This document shows, piece by piece, positions 42,605 through 59,426 of a stretch of DNA of 64,000 bases. Below the pieces are notes generated by a model that worked only from the letters and a program-made list of their open reading frames with translations, did no database searches and was not told where the DNA came from. This DNA is from Shigella phage JK32. Numbering within the stretch: the stretch's first letter is position 1; every line of letters starts with the position of its first letter. The position numbers were made by a program, and so were the translations under genes. The stretch is taken from the sequence record MK962753.1; one strand, written 5' to 3'.

Positions 42605-42874
42605 TTAAATATCGAGAGTGTTGGTCGGTTCGTCGATCACTCCCTTCCTGAGCGTTCTATTTACTATACATTCTTGTGTGATCTTGTCAATAATGGACAC
42701 CGGAATATACTTCTGATAGTGACCATATTCGATAGAGTTTTCCTCTACAAACTGAGTTGTCGCTTCAAGATAAGTCAATCCCTCTTCAACAACCAGTTTT
42801 TCGATTGCAAGACCGTTTGCTGTTTTGTTCGCGGCTTTTACCGCATGTTCATTAAGCATTGAACACCCGATCAT
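42605..42874 (-). CDS. 33: late transcription accessory protein gp33
   Basis: Resembles T4 gp33 core (LEATTQFVEENSI, C-terminal TNTLD); start ambiguous (42874 or 42859). Confidence 0.65.
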   Translation of the reverse strand: MIGCSMLNEHAVKAANKTANGLAIEKLVVEEGLTYLEATTQFVEENSIEYGHYQKYIPVSIIDKITQECIVNRTLRKGVIDEPTNTLDI

Positions 42875-43738: not shown

Positions 43739-44686
43739 TTAGAACTCACCAATTTTCTGCAACATTTTAACTAACGCATTTGTTACAAAATAGTTATAAA
43801 TCTTACCGCGTGGTGCTGGTTTAGATTTTTCCCATTCTAACAAAATTTCATATTCGATGTTATCGGGAATAAATTCAAAATCAATAAGTTCGCGGTTTTC
43901 GTCAAAACGTCGTGCTTCTTCCTCTGTCATCAAAGACTTTGGATCTTCGGCATTGAAAATTTGCTCTAACCATTTGGTTGCAATTGGTTTAGCTCGTTCC
44001 CCTTCCAGTCGTGAGATAATGAAATCACTACGGCACTTGATAGAAGCTACACCGTCTTTTGCGTCACCCTTAACACATTTTACCATAAGGTCTTTGTAAG
44101 GGCTACCATATTTGCATTTCTTCCATGCTTTCTGTACTGGCGCCCACTGTTTCACGTTTTTGTATTTGTGCAACTGTGTGTAGTCACCATCGCCGGAGTT
44201 GATTAGCACCTGGCGACCTTCTACAGAAAACTTTTTAGTTAACACAGCGATTATATCATCCGCTTCAACTTTGTCAACCTTAATAACGTGATAAGGCATG
44301 TTCTCTTTAAACTCTTCGGTGATCTTATTGATCGCAGCAAAGATCATCTCCCAATCACGCGGATCTGCGTCTCGTTTTTCCTTACGGTTACGCTTGTAAT
44401 AAGGTGCGATATCACGTCGCCAGTAACCTTTGCTTGAATCAAAAGCAAGTACCGTGATTGGGTATTGCTCTTTGAATTTTGTCATATTATAACGCATGGT
44501 GTCAAGAATAAGATGACGGATCATGCCTTCACTAATAGGATCTTCCGGTTTAAAGGTATGCGAGATAGTAGCAATCATAAGCTGCGACATATCAATCAAA
44601 TGCACACCTTCCGGTAGTTTATCTTCTGGATCATCGAAGAAATCATTAAGTGTAGCGGTAGTTTTTGTAAACGGGTTATACGTCAT
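43739..44686 (-). CDS. rnh: RNase H / FEN-family 5'-3' exonuclease
   Basis: 315 aa; matches T4 RNase H blocks (SGYWRRD..YYKKNR, KYEADD). Confidence 0.85.
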   Translation of the reverse strand: MTYNPFTKTTATLNDFFDDPEDKLPEGVHLIDMSQLMIATISHTFKPEDPISEGMIRHLILDTMRYNMTKFKEQYPITVLAFDSSKGYWRRDIAPYYKRNRKEKRDADPRDWEMIFAAINKITEEFKENMPYHVIKVDKVEADDIIAVLTKKFSVEGRQVLINSGDGDYTQLHKYKNVKQWAPVQKAWKKCKYGSPYKDLMVKCVKGDAKDGVASIKCRSDFIISRLEGERAKPIATKWLEQIFNAEDPKSLMTEEEARRFDENRELIDFEFIPDNIEYEILLEWEKSKPAPRGKIYNYFVTNALVKMLQKIGEF

Positions 44687-44688
44687 AA

Positions 44689-44874
44689 TTAAGTTCTCTC
44701 CACTCTCACAACAACATATTCGCCAAACGAGTTAGATACTTCACGATCATACCCGTATTTCTCCATAACTCGCAGAATTGCATTGTTTAATTCGGCACGG
44801 AAATAATTGTAATCCTTATCAGGGATTCTGTCAACTATCCATTTTGCACCGTCTGACAAATCAACTTTAACCAT
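44689..44874 (-). CDS. hypothetical small protein (61 aa)
   Basis: SD AAGAGGA. Confidence 0.5.
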   Translation of the reverse strand: MVKVDLSDGAKWIVDRIPDKDYNYFRAELNNAILRVMEKYGYDREVSNSFGEYVVVRVERT

Positions 44875-44912
44875 AATATATCATCCTCTTTTGTTTCTAT
44901 CAAGCCTCATTT

Positions 44913-44920
44913 TATAAATA
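44913..44920 (+). promoter_or_regulatory. late promoter box TATAAATA upstream of gene 34
   Basis: Exact TATAAATA ~29 nt upstream of ATG 44949. Confidence 0.55.
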
Positions 44921-44948
44921 TGAACATACTATAAAAGGAGACCCAATA

Positions 44949-47900
44949 ATGGCAGATTTTTCTCAACATTTCAAGGCCACATTTGGCTTTGACGCTGGTA
45001 ATGAAAAGGTCGTCAATGTAGCATTGGCTGATAAGAATGTCAACACCGATGCGGTCAACGTTGAATTTTTCAATTACCATAATGGTATTACTCAGTATGA
45101 CACAACTCGCGGTTATGATCAATACGGAACTACAATCTATCAAAACCGTCCGTATTATGCAAAAGAAGATATCACAAAGCCAGCAGGTGATTTTGACCCG
45201 ACTAAATGGCAAGCACTGCGCACGGACCCACGTTGGGATTATATTGCAGCAACTTCCGGTGATACTCCTTTAAAGTCTGGTGATTATATCGCAGCAGATG
45301 GTCAATTTGCAAACTTGACTTTCTCTATGCCAAATAAACCAGCCGAGGGAGACACTATAACAGTAAAAGATATCGGTGGCAAGTGTGGTGTTAACGAATT
45401 ATCGTTCTTGAGTTCAGGACATGAGTTTTACCATAACGGTAATGTGTATAACCGAAAATGGTATTGCACTACCCCGTATGCAATGAACTATTTCATCTTT
45501 GTTCGTAATCGTTGGCATGTTTATCAGACAGGAACAGAGCCACGCGGTGTGTACGCACAACCAGCGATTGATGCTATTCAAATGCAGAATGGTGATCAGG
45601 TATTTCGTCGTAGTTCATTGGGTAATATTACCTTAGTGCTTCCTAAGTTTGCCAACAATGGCGACATGATCCAGACTACAGATCTTGACGGGTTAACCGC
45701 AACCAACCACGTTACGGTTAAAGTTCATGAGCACGCAGAAGAACAATCAATTGGCACGTTCGGTCTAAAAGAGATTATCGGTAAGCGTAGCGGTCATGGT
45801 GTATTCATCTTTGATAAGCCTGAAAACTTATGGCGTGTGTGGGATGGTGATCAGTCTGTTCGTCTTAAACCGATCATCGATGACACTCGCTTGCAACCTA
45901 ATAGTTATGTTGCTGTATTTGGTGATCATGATGTTACTCTGACGCTACCGACCAATGTCGAGCCGGGTGATCGTATTCAAGTTTCTATGCAGTATATGCA
46001 CGGAAACCAGAATTGCCGTATTATCACCGCCGCAGAGGATACAAAAATCCTTATGCAGAAAAACATGGTTCAGTTTCCTAAGCGTAGCGAGTACCCATTC
46101 AACGGGACCGAGACGTGGAAGGAAGTGTCTGAATTGTCGTTCAATGCAGCTAGTGATTATGTTCCTTATCTGGAGTTCTCTTATTCAGAAGGTGATGATG
46201 GTAAGAAACATTGGTTGGTAGCACATGCTCACCCAATCGTAGAACGGGTAGATCCGACTCGTAAAGCGCGTGTTGGTGTAATTGCACTGGCTACCCAGAA
46301 TGAAACGAATAAAAACCATGAAGAGAATCCTAGCGACGAAGTTGCAGTAACGCCAAAAATGCTGGCTAATAAAACAGCCAACGAAACTCGACGCGGTATT
46401 GCTCGTATTGCTACTCAGGCGGAAACGCATCAAGATACTGGTTCCAGCTTCCTGGATGATGTTATCGTTACACCTAAAAAGTTAAATGACTGTGTTGCTA
46501 CCGAAGCCCGTCGTGGTGTGATGGAAATTGCAACCCAGCACGAAACCAATGAAGGTTTAGATGATACCCGCGCTATTACTCCTAAGAAATTAGAAGAACG
46601 TCGCGCATCCGAGGATCTCGCTGGTATTGCTGAAATTGTTCAGGCTGGCGGTAGTGCTGCCGATCGACGTGGCGAAGCTGGTACAGGAATCTATAACATC
46701 AATGACCATGCTAAAATTGTTACGCCACAAAACATCAACGAAGTCAAGGCGACCGAAACTTCCCGTGGTGTTGGCTATCTGGCAACTGACGCGGAAGTGC
46801 AAGGTGCTACAGAATCAACCCCGCAAGATGCTTTACTAATCACGACTCGCACGCTAACGAAACGTACTGCTACCGAATCGCGTACTGGTATCGCTGAAAT
46901 TGCAACTCAGGAAGAAACAAACTTAGGTCAAAGTGATAACCATATCATCACGCCTAAAAAGCTGCATACTCGCCGCGCAACGGAAACTTTACACGGTTTA
47001 GCAGAAATTGCAACTCAGCCGGAATTTGACGCAGGTCGTGACGACGCTCGCATTTCTACCCCGTTGAAGATTAAAACCTTCTTTGAGAATGCACAGCGTT
47101 TGAAAGTAGATCCGACTCAGGGGCTTAACCTTACTGGTGATTTGTGGCAAGGTATCATGATCAGCGGTCTGGATGCAACCGAAGACACAAAAGGTGTCGC
47201 GAAAGTTGCAACTACTCAGCTTACGGACGCTGGTCAAGATGATACTACAATCATTACTCCTAAAAAGCTGCAAGGCAAAAAGGCCACCGAAGGTAAAGAA
47301 GGTATTATCCGAGTTGGTACTCAAGCCGAAACCGTGGCTGGTGCACTGGCTAATGTAGCAATTTCTCCGAAGAACTTCAAATATGTTGTTCAGACAGAGG
47401 ATACATGGAAAGCAACCGAAGCGCGTCGTGGTTTCTTGAAAGTTGCTACTCAGGAAAACTGTTTTGTTGGTGATAATCTACAAGGTTCTACTCAAGAGCT
47501 AGGAAACTACCAGCATGACGGAATTGCTGTTACCCCGAAAGGATTAAACTACGCACTTGCTAATTTCTTGCCTAAGATGGCAACCGCTCAGAATAGTTTG
47601 AAATTGGGTAACGTAGAGGCCGCTAAATGGGCGCGTAGAGACATTGACCAGACCATTGAGAGCAATTACACGTTTAATAAAAACGTTAACGTGAAGGGCG
47701 ATTTAGAGTGCTTAAAATCTGGTTCCTTTGAAACGCTGTTTGTGACTAAGAACTCAACCGACGATCCGAGTAATGGTCATCTGGTGTTGGGTGAGCGTGG
47801 AGTTGATGGTCACACCGGAATTACTCTGCATGGCACAACCGCATCGGAAGGCATGGAAAACTCATGGTCTATTATCGTTGGTGGTACTGGAACAGCGCAA

Positions 47901-51625: not shown

Positions 51626-54394
51626 ATGGCAGATTTAAACAGAATCCAATTTAAACGCACTAGCACTAAAGGTCGTCGACCTGATGCTAGTACGATGAAT
51701 CCGGGGGAATTGGCAATCAACCTTGCGGATCAATACATGCTCACTAAAAATGATTCCGGTGCTATTATCAATTTAAGTTGTCCTCCGGTTTATGACCGCG
51801 ATGTTACAATGGCTGGTAAAGTTAAAGGTAATAATTATATCTTAAGTAAAACCGCTAACTATCTGGAAGATCAGACAGCGCGAGATCTTAACTACTTTGG
51901 TGCTTTCCGTACCAATGGTCTTGATGGTTTTCTTGAACTCACGCTAAACGTTCCTCATTCTTCTGGTGTTCAGCATGGTCGAGGATTTACTTTCCAGTAT
52001 GGACACACTGGATCGCGTGTAGAAACTTATGGATATAATAGAGAAGGTCAAAAAGCATTTAGCTATAAAATGTATCACGAAGGTGATAAACCAACTCCAG
52101 GAGAATTGAACGTTTATAGCAAACAAGAAATTGACCGTATGTTTGTTAAAAACGTTAAACTTGCTACAGTTCCTGGTGATACAGTTGAAGGCTATTTTAA
52201 ATTAGCAACTGCAATGATTCCACAAAACGGTCGTAGTGTATTTTTCCGTATTCATGGTGGTAACGGATATAACGTTACTGCATACGATCAAGTTGATATT
52301 GTAGAAATTGTTATTCGCAGTGGAAATAATCGCCCTAAAGGTGTTAACGTTATTGCATATCGCCGAAATACAAACAAATCATTTGATGTTTTGGCTGTTA
52401 ATACTTCTGGTGATAACTATGATATCTATGTTAAATATCAGCGTTACACTGATAACGTTATTGTTGAATTTGGTAAAAGTGTTGATGTTAATCTGGTAGT
52501 TCATGACGTTCCAGATTTTGTTGCTGAACGTCCTGCTGGCGATAATGTTATTGGCGGTCGTGCTGTAACTCTTTTTAACACAGAAAATAAGCGTGGTGTG
52601 TTGAGTTTTGACGATAACACACAAAACAGCTATGATATTGTTCATATGAGTAATGATAAAGGTACTGGTCGGAAATATATTCGTAAATTCCGTAGTAACT
52701 ATAATGAAATGATCTGGCATGAGACGGTTCAAGGTTCCAGTTATCGTCTGGCTACTGGTAGCACTGATGCTCAGGAAATTATAACTATTGAATCTAGTAG
52801 CTCAATTGCTGGAACTCATAAAGGTAATATTATTTCTGGTCGTATGCTGTTAAATGGCGGATCTAATGCCATTACACTACGCCGACCTGCTGGTCAGTCT
52901 AATCATATTGCGTTTCAAGATAATCGTACTGGAGATATTACCCGTCAAGGATGGATCGGTTATGCAAACGCCGATACTGACGTTTTTGAATGGTATAGTG
53001 ATGTAGGTGGCAGTTCTATTCGTCAACATATCGACGGACAGATCGAATTTCAGACAGGTAACATGAAGCGAGTCTATACCAACGGTCAATTCATTTCTTT
53101 ATATGCTGATGGCTTCCGTACTGTATATGGTAACTATGGTTCATGGTGGCGAAATGACGGTAGTAACGTTTATCTGATGAGCACAAAATCAGGCGACACT
53201 ATGGGTCCGTGGAATACCTTTAGGCCGTTCATCTATAGCCTAGCCAATGGTAACGTTACATTGGGGGGTAGTGATGCTGGCAACCATTTAATGCGTCTCA
53301 ATAATGAAAATCGTCAAGTAGAAATAAATGCAACAACACATTTAGGGTCTCGATTATATTGGGAACGTAGCGAAGGATCGGCATCTAGATTTTTTATTAA
53401 GAATTGGGGTAATGGAACTTCTCGCGCTCAAGTGTGGGAACTTGCTGACGAGACAGGTTATCATGTATATTCTCAGCGAAACGACGCGGGTGTTCTTCAA
53501 TTCCGTACTGCTGGTAATTTTGAGACTGGTGGTGATGCTCAAGTAAACGGGACTTTACTTGTCACCAATGTTCTTCGTACAAATAACCAAATACAGATTT
53601 ATCGCGATAACAACAAAGAACTCTGGTTTAAGGATGCTAATGGTACTAACCGTGGTGTTATCTGGGGTGATAGCACAGGTCAAATGCGCATTCGAAACTA
53701 TAACAGCGGAGAATTTGACCATGTTTTCCAGACTGGTATGATTCGCTTAGAACGTGGGTCTGCAAACGGTAGCGACCGTGGTTTGATTCGCGGAGAAGTA
53801 CAAGGTGGTGCATGGTCAGACTGGAAAATTCGTGCGGCTGGATTGTTGGTTGATTGTCCTAATGCTCAAACTTCCGCATATAACGTATGGAAAGCGACCA
53901 AATGGGGTTTAGACCACATCGCGGCAATGGGCGTTCATGTTCCTAGTGGTGTTATTACTAATGCTATGGCACGTCTTCATATTCATACCACAAACTTTGA
54001 CTTTAACGCCTCCGGTGATTTCCAAGCAGGTCGTAATGGTAATTTTAACGATGTGTACATTCGTTCTGATGCTCGCCTTAAAATCAATAAGGAAGAGTAT
54101 AAAGAGAATGCCACTGATAAAGTTAATCGCTTGACGGTATACACCTATGACAAGGTTAAATCTTTAACCGACCGTACTGTCATTGCTCATGAAGTTGGTA
54201 TTATTGCACAGGATCTTGAGAAAGAATTGCCGGAAGCCGTAACAACTTCTAAGATCGGCGATCCAGATAAACCAGAAGAGATCTTAACAATTTCTAACTC
54301 TGCTGTCAACGCTCTTTTAATTAAGGCGTTTCAGGAAATGAGCGAAGAATTGAAAGCCGTTAAAGCTGAACTAGCGGAACTTAAAAAGAATTAA
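51626..54394 (+). CDS. 37: long tail fibre distal subunit gp37 with C-terminal intramolecular chaperone-like domain
   Basis: N-terminus MADLNRIQFKRT..RRPDAS..GELAINL matches T4 gp37 start; C-terminal ~120 aa carries IRSDARLKINKEEY and a terminal coiled coil. Confidence 0.85.
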   Translation: MADLNRIQFKRTSTKGRRPDASTMNPGELAINLADQYMLTKNDSGAIINLSCPPVYDRDVTMAGKVKGNNYILSKTANYLEDQTARDLNYFGAFRTNGLDGFLELTLNVPHSSGVQHGRGFTFQYGHTGSRVETYGYNREGQKAFSYKMYHEGDKPTPGELNVYSKQEIDRMFVKNVKLATVPGDTVEGYFKLATAMIPQNGRSVFFRIHGGNGYNVTAYDQVDIVEIVIRSGNNRPKGVNVIAYRRNTNKSFDVLAVNTSGDNYDIYVKYQRYTDNVIVEFGKSVDVNLVVHDVPDFVAERPAGDNVIGGRAVTLFNTENKRGVLSFDDNTQNSYDIVHMSNDKGTGRKYIRKFRSNYNEMIWHETVQGSSYRLATGSTDAQEIITIESSSSIAGTHKGNIISGRMLLNGGSNAITLRRPAGQSNHIAFQDNRTGDITRQGWIGYANADTDVFEWYSDVGGSSIRQHIDGQIEFQTGNMKRVYTNGQFISLYADGFRTVYGNYGSWWRNDGSNVYLMSTKSGDTMGPWNTFRPFIYSLANGNVTLGGSDAGNHLMRLNNENRQVEINATTHLGSRLYWERSEGSASRFFIKNWGNGTSRAQVWELADETGYHVYSQRNDAGVLQFRTAGNFETGGDAQVNGTLLVTNVLRTNNQIQIYRDNNKELWFKDANGTNRGVIWGDSTGQMRIRNYNSGEFDHVFQTGMIRLERGSANGSDRGLIRGEVQGGAWSDWKIRAAGLLVDCPNAQTSAYNVWKATKWGLDHIAAMGVHVPSGVITNAMARLHIHTTNFDFNASGDFQAGRNGNFNDVYIRSDARLKINKEEYKENATDKVNRLTVYTYDKVKSLTDRTVIAHEVGIIAQDLEKELPEAVTTSKIGDPDKPEEILTISNSAVNALLIKAFQEMSEELKAVKAELAELKKN

Positions 54395-56769: not shown

Positions 56770-57138
56770 TCACTTAACAAAGATTTTCTTTAATGCTTTC
56801 AGGATCGTTGCCTCCGGCGCTTCTTCCGGTGGAGGAAGCAATTCTACCACTTCATCCTCCAACTCGATATAGTCTACCAGATATTCTACATAGAATGCAA
56901 GTGCTTCCATGAAATTAAATGCTACATCCGATTCACCACAAGCGCCTACATGCATTGTATAAACATCACTGCGATCAAGTTTGTGGATACTTCCTAGATA
57001 GTTTCTGTTATACCAGACTTCCCACACTTTCAGCTTTCCGGTTTTGGTTGCTGTTTTATAATCGGTTTCGTAGTTGTGCAATTGACGTTGCAGATCATTG
57101 ATAATAACACATTTTTCGTAATTGTTTTGAATTTCCAT
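56770..57138 (-). CDS. hypothetical protein (122 aa)
   Basis: SD GAGGA. Confidence 0.55.
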   Translation of the reverse strand: MEIQNNYEKCVIINDLQRQLHNYETDYKTATKTGKLKVWEVWYNRNYLGSIHKLDRSDVYTMHVGACGESDVAFNFMEALAFYVEYLVDYIELEDEVVELLPPPEEAPEATILKALKKIFVK

Positions 57139-57148
57139 GATGTAATCC

Positions 57149-57340
57149 TCACTTATCGTTAAGAAGTTCTAAAACTTTCTGTCGTACTTTGTCAATATTA
57201 GTTGATTCAAAAACTGTACGGTATCCCCAGCTTTGACCGTATGATCGCGAGCAATCCCCATATCCCCATTGTTCAACCTGATAGTATTCAAGGAATGGGT
57301 GTTGCCGAACTATGATACCATCACGATTAAAAATTACCAT
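57149..57340 (-). CDS. hypothetical small protein (63 aa)
   Basis: SD GAGGA. Confidence 0.5.
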   Translation of the reverse strand: MVIFNRDGIIVRQHPFLEYYQVEQWGYGDCSRSYGQSWGYRTVFESTNIDKVRQKVLELLNDK

Positions 57341-57363
57341 AATATAATCCTCAAGTCAACAAC

Positions 57364-57645
57364 TTATTTTCGGTTGTACTTCTGCCACTTTCGGTAATAC
57401 TGCTTGTAAACCTGTTTTGCGTTTTCACCATCTTTACTATACATGTTATCTACCATCAAGTCAATAAGACCTTCCGGTGTCTGGTAGTTCCCCGCTCGAA
57501 TAAGTTCTTTAATTAAAGTGTCCTGATGATCTTTGTATACTACGTTAATGATGGTCTTTTCTGCTTTCTTCGTCCCGATCATCCGGTGATTAGCTTTCAT
57601 CGCATCCCACCAATCTTTTGTGATCTTCATGTTATTGAATTGCAT
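57364..57645 (-). CDS. hypothetical basic protein (93 aa)
   Basis: SD AAGAGG. Confidence 0.55.
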   Translation of the reverse strand: MQFNNMKITKDWWDAMKANHRMIGTKKAEKTIINVVYKDHQDTLIKELIRAGNYQTPEGLIDLMVDNMYSKDGENAKQVYKQYYRKWQKYNRK

Positions 57646-57656
57646 AATTTAACCTC

Positions 57657-58415
57657 TTACTTGCACACGTATTGATCTACATCAATTGCGCCACCGAATG
57701 TAGGATGACGTTTTTCAAATCGAATAGTTCCGTCGTTTGGTTCGAAAACGGAGTATTCATATAGATCTTTCTTGCCAACATTCTTATAAAACCCGCCTTT
57801 AGTCATAACGGTTTCTTGTACGTTTGCTTTGTGTACGTTGTATTCGTCAATGTATACAAAATCAACCATCTTCCCATTTTTAATGGTTACTTTAAGATCT
57901 CCTGGTTGGTTTCCATATTTTGCATACAGTGGAGCTTCTTTAATTTTGGTGGAAATTCCATCTTTCATACTCCACTCATAACGAACGGTGCATTGATAGG
58001 TAAAAGTTTCGACCTTCGGTTCTTCCACCACTTTTTCTTCCTGTTTCGGTTGTTCTTCGTCAACCTTCACGGAAGTCTCTGAATCGCTTTCTGACGCGGT
58101 TTCTTCTTTAGGTAATACATTCATCAAGTTTTGGATTTGAGCGTTGTATACAGCCTCCAGTGGCTGAATCTGCCCGATATTGATCATTGTATCACGAACA
58201 GTTTTATTCCAGTTGCGTTGCTCTTGTTTCAGAGACGGATCAATCTTAACAGCCTTAACATATACTTCATGAAGTTTCGAATCCAGTGCGGAGATTGACT
58301 CATTAGCACAAATAAACTTCTCTGATTTGGTAGTGGCTTTAGCGCAATCAAAGGACGCAGCATTAGCACCGAAAGCAGTAGCGGAAAGAACGATAGCAGC
58401 GATAATGTTTTTCAT
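57657..58415 (-). CDS. secreted DUF1311-like (LprI/YecT N-terminal domain-like) protein
   Basis: 252 aa; signal peptide with AxA site; SFDCAKA ... FICANESISALD ... QRNW matches DUF1311 signature; SD GAGGAA. Confidence 0.65.
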   Translation of the reverse strand: MKNIIAAIVLSATAFGANAASFDCAKATTKSEKFICANESISALDSKLHEVYVKAVKIDPSLKQEQRNWNKTVRDTMINIGQIQPLEAVYNAQIQNLMNVLPKEETASESDSETSVKVDEEQPKQEEKVVEEPKVETFTYQCTVRYEWSMKDGISTKIKEAPLYAKYGNQPGDLKVTIKNGKMVDFVYIDEYNVHKANVQETVMTKGGFYKNVGKKDLYEYSVFEPNDGTIRFEKRHPTFGGAIDVDQYVCK

Positions 58416-58449
58416 AATATATTCCTCAGTGTTTTGTCTTGATTGGAGT

Positions 58450-58478
58450 ATCTTACTACTCCATTAATCTGGTGTCAA
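58450..58478 (-). promoter_or_regulatory. early promoter with inverted repeat around -10
   Basis: TTGACA, 17 nt, TAAGAT; GGAGTA ... TACTCC inverted repeat. Confidence 0.6.
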
Positions 58479-58485
58479 CTATTTT

Positions 58486-58641
58486 TTAAATTTCTTCTAC
58501 ACTAAAGTCTTCAATGTTGTTGTGCTCGGAGAACGTTGCCAGACCAGCATTCCATGCATCATCCTCAGAGAAGAATACACCGTAACGTTCATATCCTTTA
58601 GCGCCTTCAAATTTAATCATTAATTTGTGAGTATGTTTCAT
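58486..58641 (-). CDS. hypothetical small protein (51 aa)
   Basis: ATG at 58641 with SD GGAGAATC; track ORF extends upstream into the promoter. Confidence 0.45.
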   Translation of the reverse strand: MKHTHKLMIKFEGAKGYERYGVFFSEDDAWNAGLATFSEHNNIEDFSVEEI

Positions 58642-58672
58642 TTTGATTCTCCTTCGTTGTCTTGATGGGTTT

Positions 58673-58701
58673 AGTATAGGGGATCGCCGATCCCCTGTCA
58701 A
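58673..58701 (-). promoter_or_regulatory. early promoter with palindromic spacer
   Basis: TTGACA, spacer GGGGATCGGCGATCCCC, TATACT. Confidence 0.65.
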
Positions 58702-58712
58702 CAACTATTTTT

Positions 58713-58925
58713 TTAATTTTTACCCGCTCGTGCATTAATACGCATTTTCTGCATAGCCATGATCTGGCTTACTGCTTCTTCTTTACGTTCTTGCGTGATA
58801 ACGTGACCAGATTCCGCAAACTCTCCCGCAACTTCTTCTACGATCTCGCGAACTTGAGAACGTCCAAAGATGCGGTTTCCTTCGTAGCTCATAAACTCGG
58901 TTACTACTTGCTCGATAGATTTCAT
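58713..58925 (-). CDS. hypothetical small protein (70 aa)
   Basis: SD GGAGAATC. Confidence 0.55.
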   Translation of the reverse strand: MKSIEQVVTEFMSYEGNRIFGRSQVREIVEEVAGEFAESGHVITQERKEEAVSQIMAMQKMRINARAGKN

Positions 58926-58955
58926 GTGATTCTCCTTTCGTTTCGGTGTGGGAGT

Positions 58956-58984
58956 ATGTTAATACTCCCATTTCTTTACGTCAA
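58956..58984 (-). promoter_or_regulatory. early promoter with inverted repeat around -10
   Basis: TTGACG, 17 nt, TAACAT; GGGAGTAT ... ATACTCCC inverted repeat. Confidence 0.55.
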
Positions 58985-58987
58985 CAA

Positions 58988-59149
58988 CTATTTTAAATTA
59001 TTTTCGACCTTCATCCATTCCGCGTATTCTTGCGCGGCTACTTTCGGATTTAGTCCGTCTTCGTACATTGCTTCAAGTAATTCTTCGTCGGTGGGCTTAT
59101 ACCCTAGATAAGCCTCCACCTGATTTTTCCAAATTTTATACCAGTTCAT
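58988..59149 (-). CDS. hypothetical small protein (53 aa)
   Basis: ATG at 59149; SD GGTGA; coupled to upstream gene stop. Confidence 0.45.
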   Translation of the reverse strand: MNWYKIWKNQVEAYLGYKPTDEELLEAMYEDGLNPKVAAQEYAEWMKVENNLK

Positions 59150-59153
59150 ATTA

Positions 59154-59426
59154 TCACCAGTCAAGAGCGCGTGTCTCTGCGTCTTCCCATGCTTGGTCCA
59201 TAACAGCCTTGAAAACATATTCTAAAGTATCATCTTTAGAGAATCCGAAGACCTTAGACGGAATATCTTCAATTGCTACTCCAGCAACTTCTGCATTACG
59301 CGCTTGGCAATAATGCAACTCTAAGTTATCGAGATAGCGACCGCCTAATTTCTCCATATCATCCCAGCATTTCCAGTAACCTACTTTATCTGCAATTGCC
59401 AACACTTTGCTGTTTTTGTTGCTCAT
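59154..59426 (-). CDS. hypothetical protein (90 aa)
   Basis: ATG at ~59426 with SD GGAGAATC; track start is TTG. Confidence 0.55.
   Translation of the reverse strand: MSNKNSKVLAIADKVGYWKCWDDMEKLGGRYLDNLELHYCQARNAEVAGVAIEDIPSKVFGFSKDDTLEYVFKAVMDQAWEDAETRALDW

Follow-up and report, generated by a model that had tools for sequence, protein, structure and literature searches.

A small gene of Shigella phage JK32 encodes a predicted secreted protein that stands above an ordinary 'hypothetical secreted protein' on several counts: its layout is LprI-like, with a DUF1311 module joined to a PliC-shaped but motif-less barrel, it shows sharp cassette polymorphism, and its constant module recurs almost identically in a prophage of Escherichia coli. 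The gene lies in a stretch of 64,000 nucleotides (sequence record MK962753.1), referred to below as the window. Tentatively, and with somewhat less than even confidence, we propose that the protein binds or inhibits, in the periplasm, peptidoglycan hydrolases arriving from outside and thereby acts in superinfection exclusion. The DUF1311 annotation, the signal peptide and the early promoter are already public for the ortholog of phage RB49 and are not new; new here are the cassette-type C-terminal module, the sharing with prophages, and the presence in Krischvirus of a gp5 lysozyme without a detectable Spackle or Imm.

The window derives from a Krischvirus, an RB49-like T4-type coliphage, and about 60 Krischvirus genomes match its region 57000-59200 at 92-98% identity. 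The gene is located in a leftward cluster of small early open reading frames (ORFs) between the holin gene t and the topoisomerase gene 52 (Table 1). RB49p262 is annotated as 'hypothetical protein', the RB49 protein carries the UniProt name 'Lysozyme inhibitor LprI-like N-terminal domain-containing protein', and the E. coli copies are called 'lysozyme inhibitor LprI family protein' by NCBI. For RB49ORF260c, a weak DUF1311 match (E 0.2, Table 3), a signal peptide at residues 1-20, no transmembrane segment and, in the supplement, a predicted early promoter directly 5' of the gene (Pe:158760, score 38.9) have been reported (Nolan et al., 2006; PMC1524935). Searches of titles and abstracts that combined LprI with prophage or superinfection exclusion, or Krischvirus with superinfection, returned no function for the protein. 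It is matched over its full length by phrog_14799 (E 7e-156), while zero matches were obtained in NCBIfam and in a sequence search of the whole protein against the PDB, and the matches of a structure search of BFVD were limited to the RB49 ortholog and to phage proteins that are themselves uncharacterised. A weak PADLOC match to the candidate defence family PDC-S13 (residues 54-111, E 0.011; E 0.0044 for the E. coli allele) is probably compositional.

Several small ORFs lie upstream of the gene, at 58486-59300 (-), and for each of them a separate early promoter is predicted in RB49 (Pe:158983, 159267, 159769). The nearest of them (58486-58704, -) is 72 aa long from a TTG start in the window versus 51 aa in the RB49 annotation. 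In some Krischvirus genomes this stretch is longer by about 500 bp (spans of ~2710 bp versus a 2201-bp query), Phi1 ORF263.1 being an example.

Table 1. Features of the DUF1311 gene and its phage relatives. Positions refer to the window unless a retrieved segment is named.
Feature	Position	Strand	Description
Whole CDS, 252 aa + stop	57657..58415	-	ATG start; from the ORF list; ortholog of RB49p262 / RB49ORF260c / UniProt Q7Y3G7
Predicted Sec (SPase I) signal peptide, residues 1-19 (or 1-20)	58359..58415	-	Hydrophobic core, A-N-A at -3/-1, no lipobox
Constant module: LprI/DUF1311 helical domain, residues ~22-100	58116..58352	-	Pfam PF07007; Cys24 + Cys36
Acidic, disordered linker, residues 101-134	58014..58115	-	Composition and pLDDT; last part holds the upstream recombination boundary of the cassette
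Variable module: C-terminal beta-barrel (modelled), residues 135-252	57660..58013	-	Allele class 'A1' (RB49 type)
Predicted early-type sigma-70 promoter	58450..58478	-	-35 TTGACA 58473-58478, 17-nt spacer, -10 TAAGAT 58450-58455, A-rich tract upstream
Shine-Dalgarno GAGGAA	58422..58427	-	6 nt 5' of the ATG; conserved in the Krischvirus alignment
Downstream 93-aa gene	57364..57645	-	Start codon 11 nt past the stop of the DUF1311 gene; second variable cassette
Klebsiella phage Marfa protein, 252 aa	1501-2259 of retrieved segment		Between primase and dCTPase
Lambdoid phage ev099 protein, 232 aa	2501-3199 of retrieved segment		Between ea22 and xis/int
Aeromonas phage CC2 protein, 239 aa	1474-2193 of retrieved segment		

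The initial annotation had described a cleavable signal peptide, a DUF1311 pattern, an acidic linker, a beta-rich C-terminal domain and an early promoter belonging to the gene itself, and each of these elements was recovered, the C-terminal domain as a confident model and the promoter as a predicted site. The protein begins with MKNIIAAIVLSATAFGANA followed by ASFDC, and cleavage is predicted after A19 or A20. K2 lies in the n-region of the signal, whose 13-residue core (residues 4-16) has a mean Kyte-Doolittle value of 2.28, and these SPase I features agree with the published prediction for the RB49 ortholog. The absence of a lipobox led us to reject a lipoprotein, and the mature protein is expected to reside in the periplasm.

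The motifs FDCxKA, ICxxxxLxxLD and QRxW are all found in the constant module (SFDCAKA...FICANESISALD...EQRNW), and the domain search passed the gathering cut-off of PF07007 (LprI, formerly DUF1311), with 24.8 bits versus 22 (E 3e-5, residues 24-76). This match covers profile positions 1-71 of 106 only and is not that of a full-length domain. The module also has two cysteines (C24 and C36) instead of the four of DUF1311, and the other two cysteines of the protein lie in the barrel. Allele variants and relatives from other phages score 22.4-28.4 bits against the same profile. AlphaFold2 models the module as four helices with a pLDDT of about 61-79, and its rates of substitution (dN 0.004-0.035 versus dS 0.07-0.19) indicate strong constraint.

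The predicted promoter directly upstream of the gene is of the early type and has 10 of 12 consensus matches at 58450-58478. It is conserved in RB49, Phi1 and JSE and coincides with Pe:158760 of the RB49 genome study (Nolan et al., 2006; PMC1524935). Promoter-like sites are not in excess in the whole local scan (6 versus 5.8 in shuffled sequence), so support for this promoter comes from its position, its conservation and the published prediction, not from the scan count. Expression of the gene is accordingly predicted to be early. Since no terminator-like site was found between 55300 and 57700, the transcript probably spans the downstream small genes as well, and the 93-aa gene is probably co-transcribed with the DUF1311 gene. 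The window allele of this 93-aa gene is that of JSE (93-100% nucleotide identity, versus 42-75% for RB49 and Phi1), and the identity profile indicates that it assorts independently of the barrel allele. It is a neighbour of the DUF1311 gene, with no evidence of a functional partnership.

Between the two modules, the linker combines 12 D/E with 5 K/R (pI 4.26 for residues 101-134), and pLDDT falls below 50 at residues 104-132. The C-terminal domain that follows is modelled by AlphaFold2 with a pLDDT of about 90 in the full-length model and of 91.1 (pTM 0.83) when taken alone. The model is an up-and-down barrel of about 8-9 strands with the flattened antiparallel arrangement of MliC/PliC barrels. 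The first strand contains Cys142 and the last strand Cys251, both of them invariant across alleles, and the barrel is probably closed by a disulfide; the two cysteine pairs of the protein would fit the oxidising periplasm. The modelled shape resembles PliC/MliC-type barrels and also the ligand- or protein-binding barrels of the surface lipoproteins NHBA, TbpB and fHbp. At the level of formal searches, a Foldseek comparison of the full model with the PDB gave zero matches at E <=0.001, and a profile of the C-terminal module gave chance-level matches only against PDB sequences. A HMMER search of 1.84 billion representatives with this module yielded 3 matches, comprising one further allele of this family and two repetitive proteins that were judged spurious. 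The barrel appears to be effectively an orphan in sequence space. It has no match to PF09864 (MliC) at E values up to 1 and the protein lacks the SGxxY loop (SG..Y), the nearest string, KGGFY, being not conserved in other alleles; canonical membership of the MliC/PliC family was rejected on these grounds.

Only 20 relatives were found among the 5.8 billion proteins searched. In their alignment, residues 1 to ~130, comprising the signal, DUF1311 and most of the linker, are almost invariant, whereas the last ~118 aa are very different, and beyond residue 109 the invariant positions are Cys142, Gly153 and Cys251 only. The same discontinuity is seen in the DNA, where Phi1 and JSE match the window at 95-100% in either flank and at 33-58% over 58040-57680. 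The drop begins in the bin 58040-57981, and JSE returns to 98-100% right past the stop codon. A constant module, a diverged module and sharp boundaries between them, as in cassette-type recognition proteins, are all present. Published Krischvirus genomes contain three alleles, namely the RB49 type (found in 45 records, with protein identities of >=95%), the Phi1/GEC-3S type (about 63-66% overall identity) and the JSE type. When metagenomic and E. coli sequences are included, at least eight allele classes, which represent our own grouping of the alignments, fall into two sequence-unrelated types: type A with five classes that are 27-39% identical to each other, and type B with three. Shared ancestry of the type A and type B barrels is not demonstrable, as the hhalign probability is 3.9% and the first strand (FxYxC..IDG) alone aligns. 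With types that are not detectably homologous, the targets of different alleles may be quite different.

Selection acts in the same direction on both parts of the protein. In the barrel, the window and RB49 differ by 0 non-synonymous and 3 synonymous changes, and ongoing positive selection was not seen inside allele classes (pN/pS at most about 0.5, from few differences); both modules are under purifying selection. The pattern, as read from these comparisons, is that of old, discrete alleles recombined onto a recently shared constant module, and not of ongoing hypermutation. Discrete, anciently diverged and recombined alleles under purifying selection fit a recognition module that faces diverse antagonists.

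The gene is also found in the E. coli chromosome, with 94-96% nucleotide identity in 26 of 5426 complete genomes, and the match sets in near the start codon and ends at the linker. At the five loci examined, it is the last, att-proximal gene of a siphovirus-like prophage inserted in hicB; the full prophage was read in strain H2 and the other loci were checked for the hicB-adjacent position. In H2 (NZ_CP028733.1), the prophage of ~35 kb (8566-44161 of the retrieved segment; 41.6% GC) encodes a serine recombinase, tail, capsid and terminase. It splits the antitoxin gene hicB, and hicA is intact beside the truncated hicB. The H2 copy is accompanied by a promoter-like site (42771-42798) and by a terminator-like hairpin with a 10-bp stem (43788-43812), both of which are consensus matches only, and it would form an autonomous promoter-gene-terminator unit at the prophage end that is absent from related genomes. 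Self-contained units of this kind at the end of a prophage are the usual layout of exclusion or conversion genes. Three different barrels are carried by the prophage copies: one, in a 264-aa protein, is of type B like that of JSE, and the rest belong to type A classes that also occur on phage-sized metagenomic contigs. The synonymous distance of the N-terminal module between phage and prophage (0.07-0.19) is no larger than that between phages. Because the N-terminal module and the barrel classes are the same and the synonymous distances are phage-like, virulent and temperate phages have one gene pool for this protein.

A similar design is present in other phages, including Marfa, ev099 and CC2 (Table 1), where a signal and an AASFDCxKA-type DUF1311 (profile positions 1 to ~71) are followed by a linker and an unrelated C-terminal domain devoid of Pfam matches. 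The unrelated C-terminal domains of these proteins contain cysteines, which suggests a broad phage family of secreted 'DUF1311-X' proteins.

Which enzymes could such a protein meet in a cell infected by a Krischvirus? In RB49 (OZ035808.1), gp5 (599 aa, 44783-46582 (+) of the retrieved segment) is the sole protein with a T4-lysozyme-like domain, and the RB49 endolysin must consequently be of another type. The lysozyme domain of gp5 shows 97.7-100% identity in every listed Krischvirus record. Between phages that represent the three phage allele classes it does not differ at all (100% identity), and for this reason co-variation between the barrel allele and the gp5 lysozyme domain of the same phage was rejected. 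No homolog of T4 Spackle was found in the whole RB49 genome or in the window (best tblastn E 0.069, inside gp41), and none of Imm was detectable in the whole RB49 genome; following this whole-genome search, a hidden Spackle or Imm homolog in Krischvirus was rejected. Spackle and Imm are not annotated in the interval between genes 61 and 41 of RB49, which holds other small ORFs (Dc1, Dc2). Krischvirus does possess rI, which adjoins tk.

The distal fibre tip of gp37 gives a second view of the phage's own entry machinery. In the window (53495-54391, +) it is 97.5% identical to that of GEC-3S and 66-69% identical to those of RB49, TB34, Phi1 and JSE, and the window phage is a mosaic that no single genome in the databases matches. 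TB34 combines a 100% identical DUF1311 protein with a 69% identical tip, whereas GEC-3S combines a 97.5% identical tip with a different allele, and co-variation of the allele with the gp37 tip was rejected. Given the invariance of gp5 and the lack of tracking of gp37, the variable barrel is not adapted to the machinery with which the phage itself enters the cell. Should own-kind gp5 be a target, the constant module is a better candidate for binding than the barrel.

These comparisons also bear on a different role, in which the barrel would mask an outer-membrane receptor, a transporter on its periplasmic side or the machinery of DNA entry, thereby keeping competitors from adsorbing or delivering their DNA, the alleles corresponding to receptors. 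The models for such a role are Llp of T5 and Cor of phi80 and N15, small exported outer-membrane lipoproteins that target FhuA and block competing phages. The JK32 protein is also small and predicted to be exported, and its prophage copy is similarly self-contained at the prophage end, but it has no homology to Llp or Cor and lacks a lipobox. Masking would account for the export signal, the early promoter and the self-contained prophage unit, for the polymorphism of a recognition module, and for the likeness of the barrel to those of NHBA, TbpB and fHbp. However, the protein is predicted to be soluble and not a lipoprotein, its allele does not follow the phage's own gp37 tip in TB34 and GEC-3S, and the strongly conserved DUF1311 module would be left without a role. 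We consider masking unlikely.

The closest parallel in layout is LprI of Mycobacterium tuberculosis (Rv1541c), a lysozyme inhibitor that combines PF07007 DUF1311 with PF09864 MliC and whose inhibitory activity is attributed to the MliC domain. The order of domains in LprI is DUF1311, then MliC. At the fold level, and as far as the model of the barrel goes, the phage protein is comparable in its predicted export and in joining a DUF1311 module to a PliC/MliC-shaped barrel. Unlike the lipoprotein LprI, it has a predicted SPase I signal without a lipobox, its barrel is polymorphic and lacks the MliC signature and SGxxY, and its DUF1311 match is restricted to positions 1-71 of 106 with two cysteines, not four. 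Among the closest known barrels are those of the PliC/MliC family, namely Brucella PliC, Brucella PhiA and Neisseria ACP. PliC/MliC barrels are stabilised by disulfides, and their SGxxY loop plugs the active site of lysozyme; PhiA, which is also devoid of SGxxY, neither bound nor inhibited lysozymes in vitro.

With regard to function, T4 Spackle (gp61.3) is a precedent. This early periplasmic inhibitor of the gp5 tail lysozyme is part of T4 superinfection exclusion and consists of a single, highly conserved 75-aa helical bundle. The phage protein resembles it as the product of a T-even-type gene of predicted early expression, as a small, predicted periplasmic protein with a cleavable signal and a probable disulfide, and in the role proposed here. 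It differs from Spackle in the absence of sequence similarity, in having two modules, one of which is hypervariable, and in its occurrence in temperate prophages.

DUF1311 proteins of bacteria provide further precedents. Etsi4 of EHEC rescues the periplasmic toxicity of the cell-wall-directed type VI secretion system (T6SS) effector Etse4, and in Pantoea homologs of two LprI-domain genes are located directly 3' of lysozyme-like T6SS effectors. Salmonella ScwA is a periplasmic DUF1311 protein that controls MltD levels, and its deletion left lysozyme sensitivity unaffected. Etsi4, the Pantoea orphan immunity proteins and ScwA share with the phage protein a signal and a DUF1311, and they are periplasmic and linked to cell-wall-active enzymes. 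In contrast to the phage gene, theirs are found in T6SS islands or the chromosome and lack a variable barrel. In ScwA, moreover, DUF1311 is at the C-terminus, and the protein acts on MltD levels and is not a lysozyme inhibitor.

From these cases it could be argued that the phage protein is an orphan immunity protein against peptidoglycan-degrading T6SS effectors or lysozyme-like bacteriocins, which would let the infected cell or the lysogen survive, its alleles matching effector families. In T6SS loci, DUF1311 proteins do act as immunity proteins, either cognate or orphan, a constant part joined to a variable part is reminiscent of polymorphic immunity repertoires, and carriage by a prophage would benefit the lysogen. 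Against this, no copy adjoins an effector gene; the close homologs occur in phage or prophage contexts or on short metagenomic contigs, T6SS islands numbering 0 among the loci examined; and a virulent phage with a short latent period would gain little. This reading seems to us quite unlikely.

ScwA raises yet another possibility, that the protein modulates host cell-wall enzymes or the timing of lysis, either by acting on a lytic transglycosylase as ScwA does or as an accessory of the holin or antiholin, and stabilises the sacculus until lysis. Besides the control of MltD levels by a periplasmic DUF1311 protein, the holin gene t lies only ~2.3 kb away, and the initial annotation had itself suggested lysis inhibition. 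We nevertheless judge this improbable, as rI is encoded elsewhere in the genome, the siphovirus-like prophage with the same gene has a different set of lysis genes, and conserved host enzymes do not explain at least eight deeply diverged alleles. The functions put forward initially were superinfection exclusion, lysis inhibition and protection of peptidoglycan. Lysis inhibition appears the least likely of them, because Krischvirus has rI and the gene also occurs in an unrelated siphovirus-like prophage. Exclusion or peptidoglycan protection is favoured in view of the immunity precedents among DUF1311 proteins, the PliC/MliC-like barrel, the lack of a detectable Spackle or Imm homolog, and the self-contained prophage unit.

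In the mechanism that we propose for such a hydrolase binder or inhibitor, a soluble periplasmic protein would be made early in infection, and also from the autonomous promoter-gene-terminator unit of prophages. Its near-invariant LprI/DUF1311 helical module would be tethered by the flexible acidic linker to the exchangeable barrel. The protein would bind and neutralise peptidoglycan hydrolases that enter the periplasm from outside, the first candidate targets being the tail-associated lysozymes of superinfecting phages. The outcome would be superinfection exclusion and protection from lysis-from-without, the role that Spackle has in T4 and that is missing in Krischvirus. The alleles of the barrel would determine which hydrolases or partners are recognised, and the constant module would provide a common function, for example binding to the conserved lysozyme-like fold or to the sacculus. 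The proposal draws on the early-type promoter, the export signal, the self-contained unit of the prophage and the polymorphism of a recognition module, and it is also favoured by the DUF1311 precedents, by a gp5 lysozyme in a phage without detectable Spackle or Imm, and by the recurrence of the design in Marfa, ev099 and CC2. The target and the inhibitory activity are putative. Evidence against a hydrolase inhibitor is that the barrel has no MliC/PliC sequence similarity or SGxxY, that PhiA and ScwA are precedents without such activity, and that allele diversity does not track the phage's own lysozyme.

Beyond this, and with low probability, the findings might reflect a previously unrecognised periplasmic 'exclusion specificity' system that is shuffled by recombination and common to virulent T4-like phages and prophages. 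Here the constant DUF1311 would be combined with a barrel that picks the competitor, whether this is one class of tail lysozymes or tips of phages or a muramidase toxin of bacterial origin, as a phage counterpart of polymorphic immunity proteins and, where Spackle is missing, its functional replacement.

Of the periplasmic proteins with which T-even phages exclude competitors, only a few are understood, mainly Imm and Spackle, and homologs of these two went undetected in the RB49 group. With its LprI-like layout, the predicted early secreted protein is a testable candidate for the missing Spackle/Imm function. Its sharing at about 95% nucleotide identity with a temperate prophage indicates that modules of envelope defence come from a single pool common to virulent and temperate phages. 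The alleles may foretell co-infection between phages or the displacement of one by another, a matter of relevance to the design of phage cocktails, and the protein would offer a tractable experimental system for the widespread and poorly understood DUF1311 domain.
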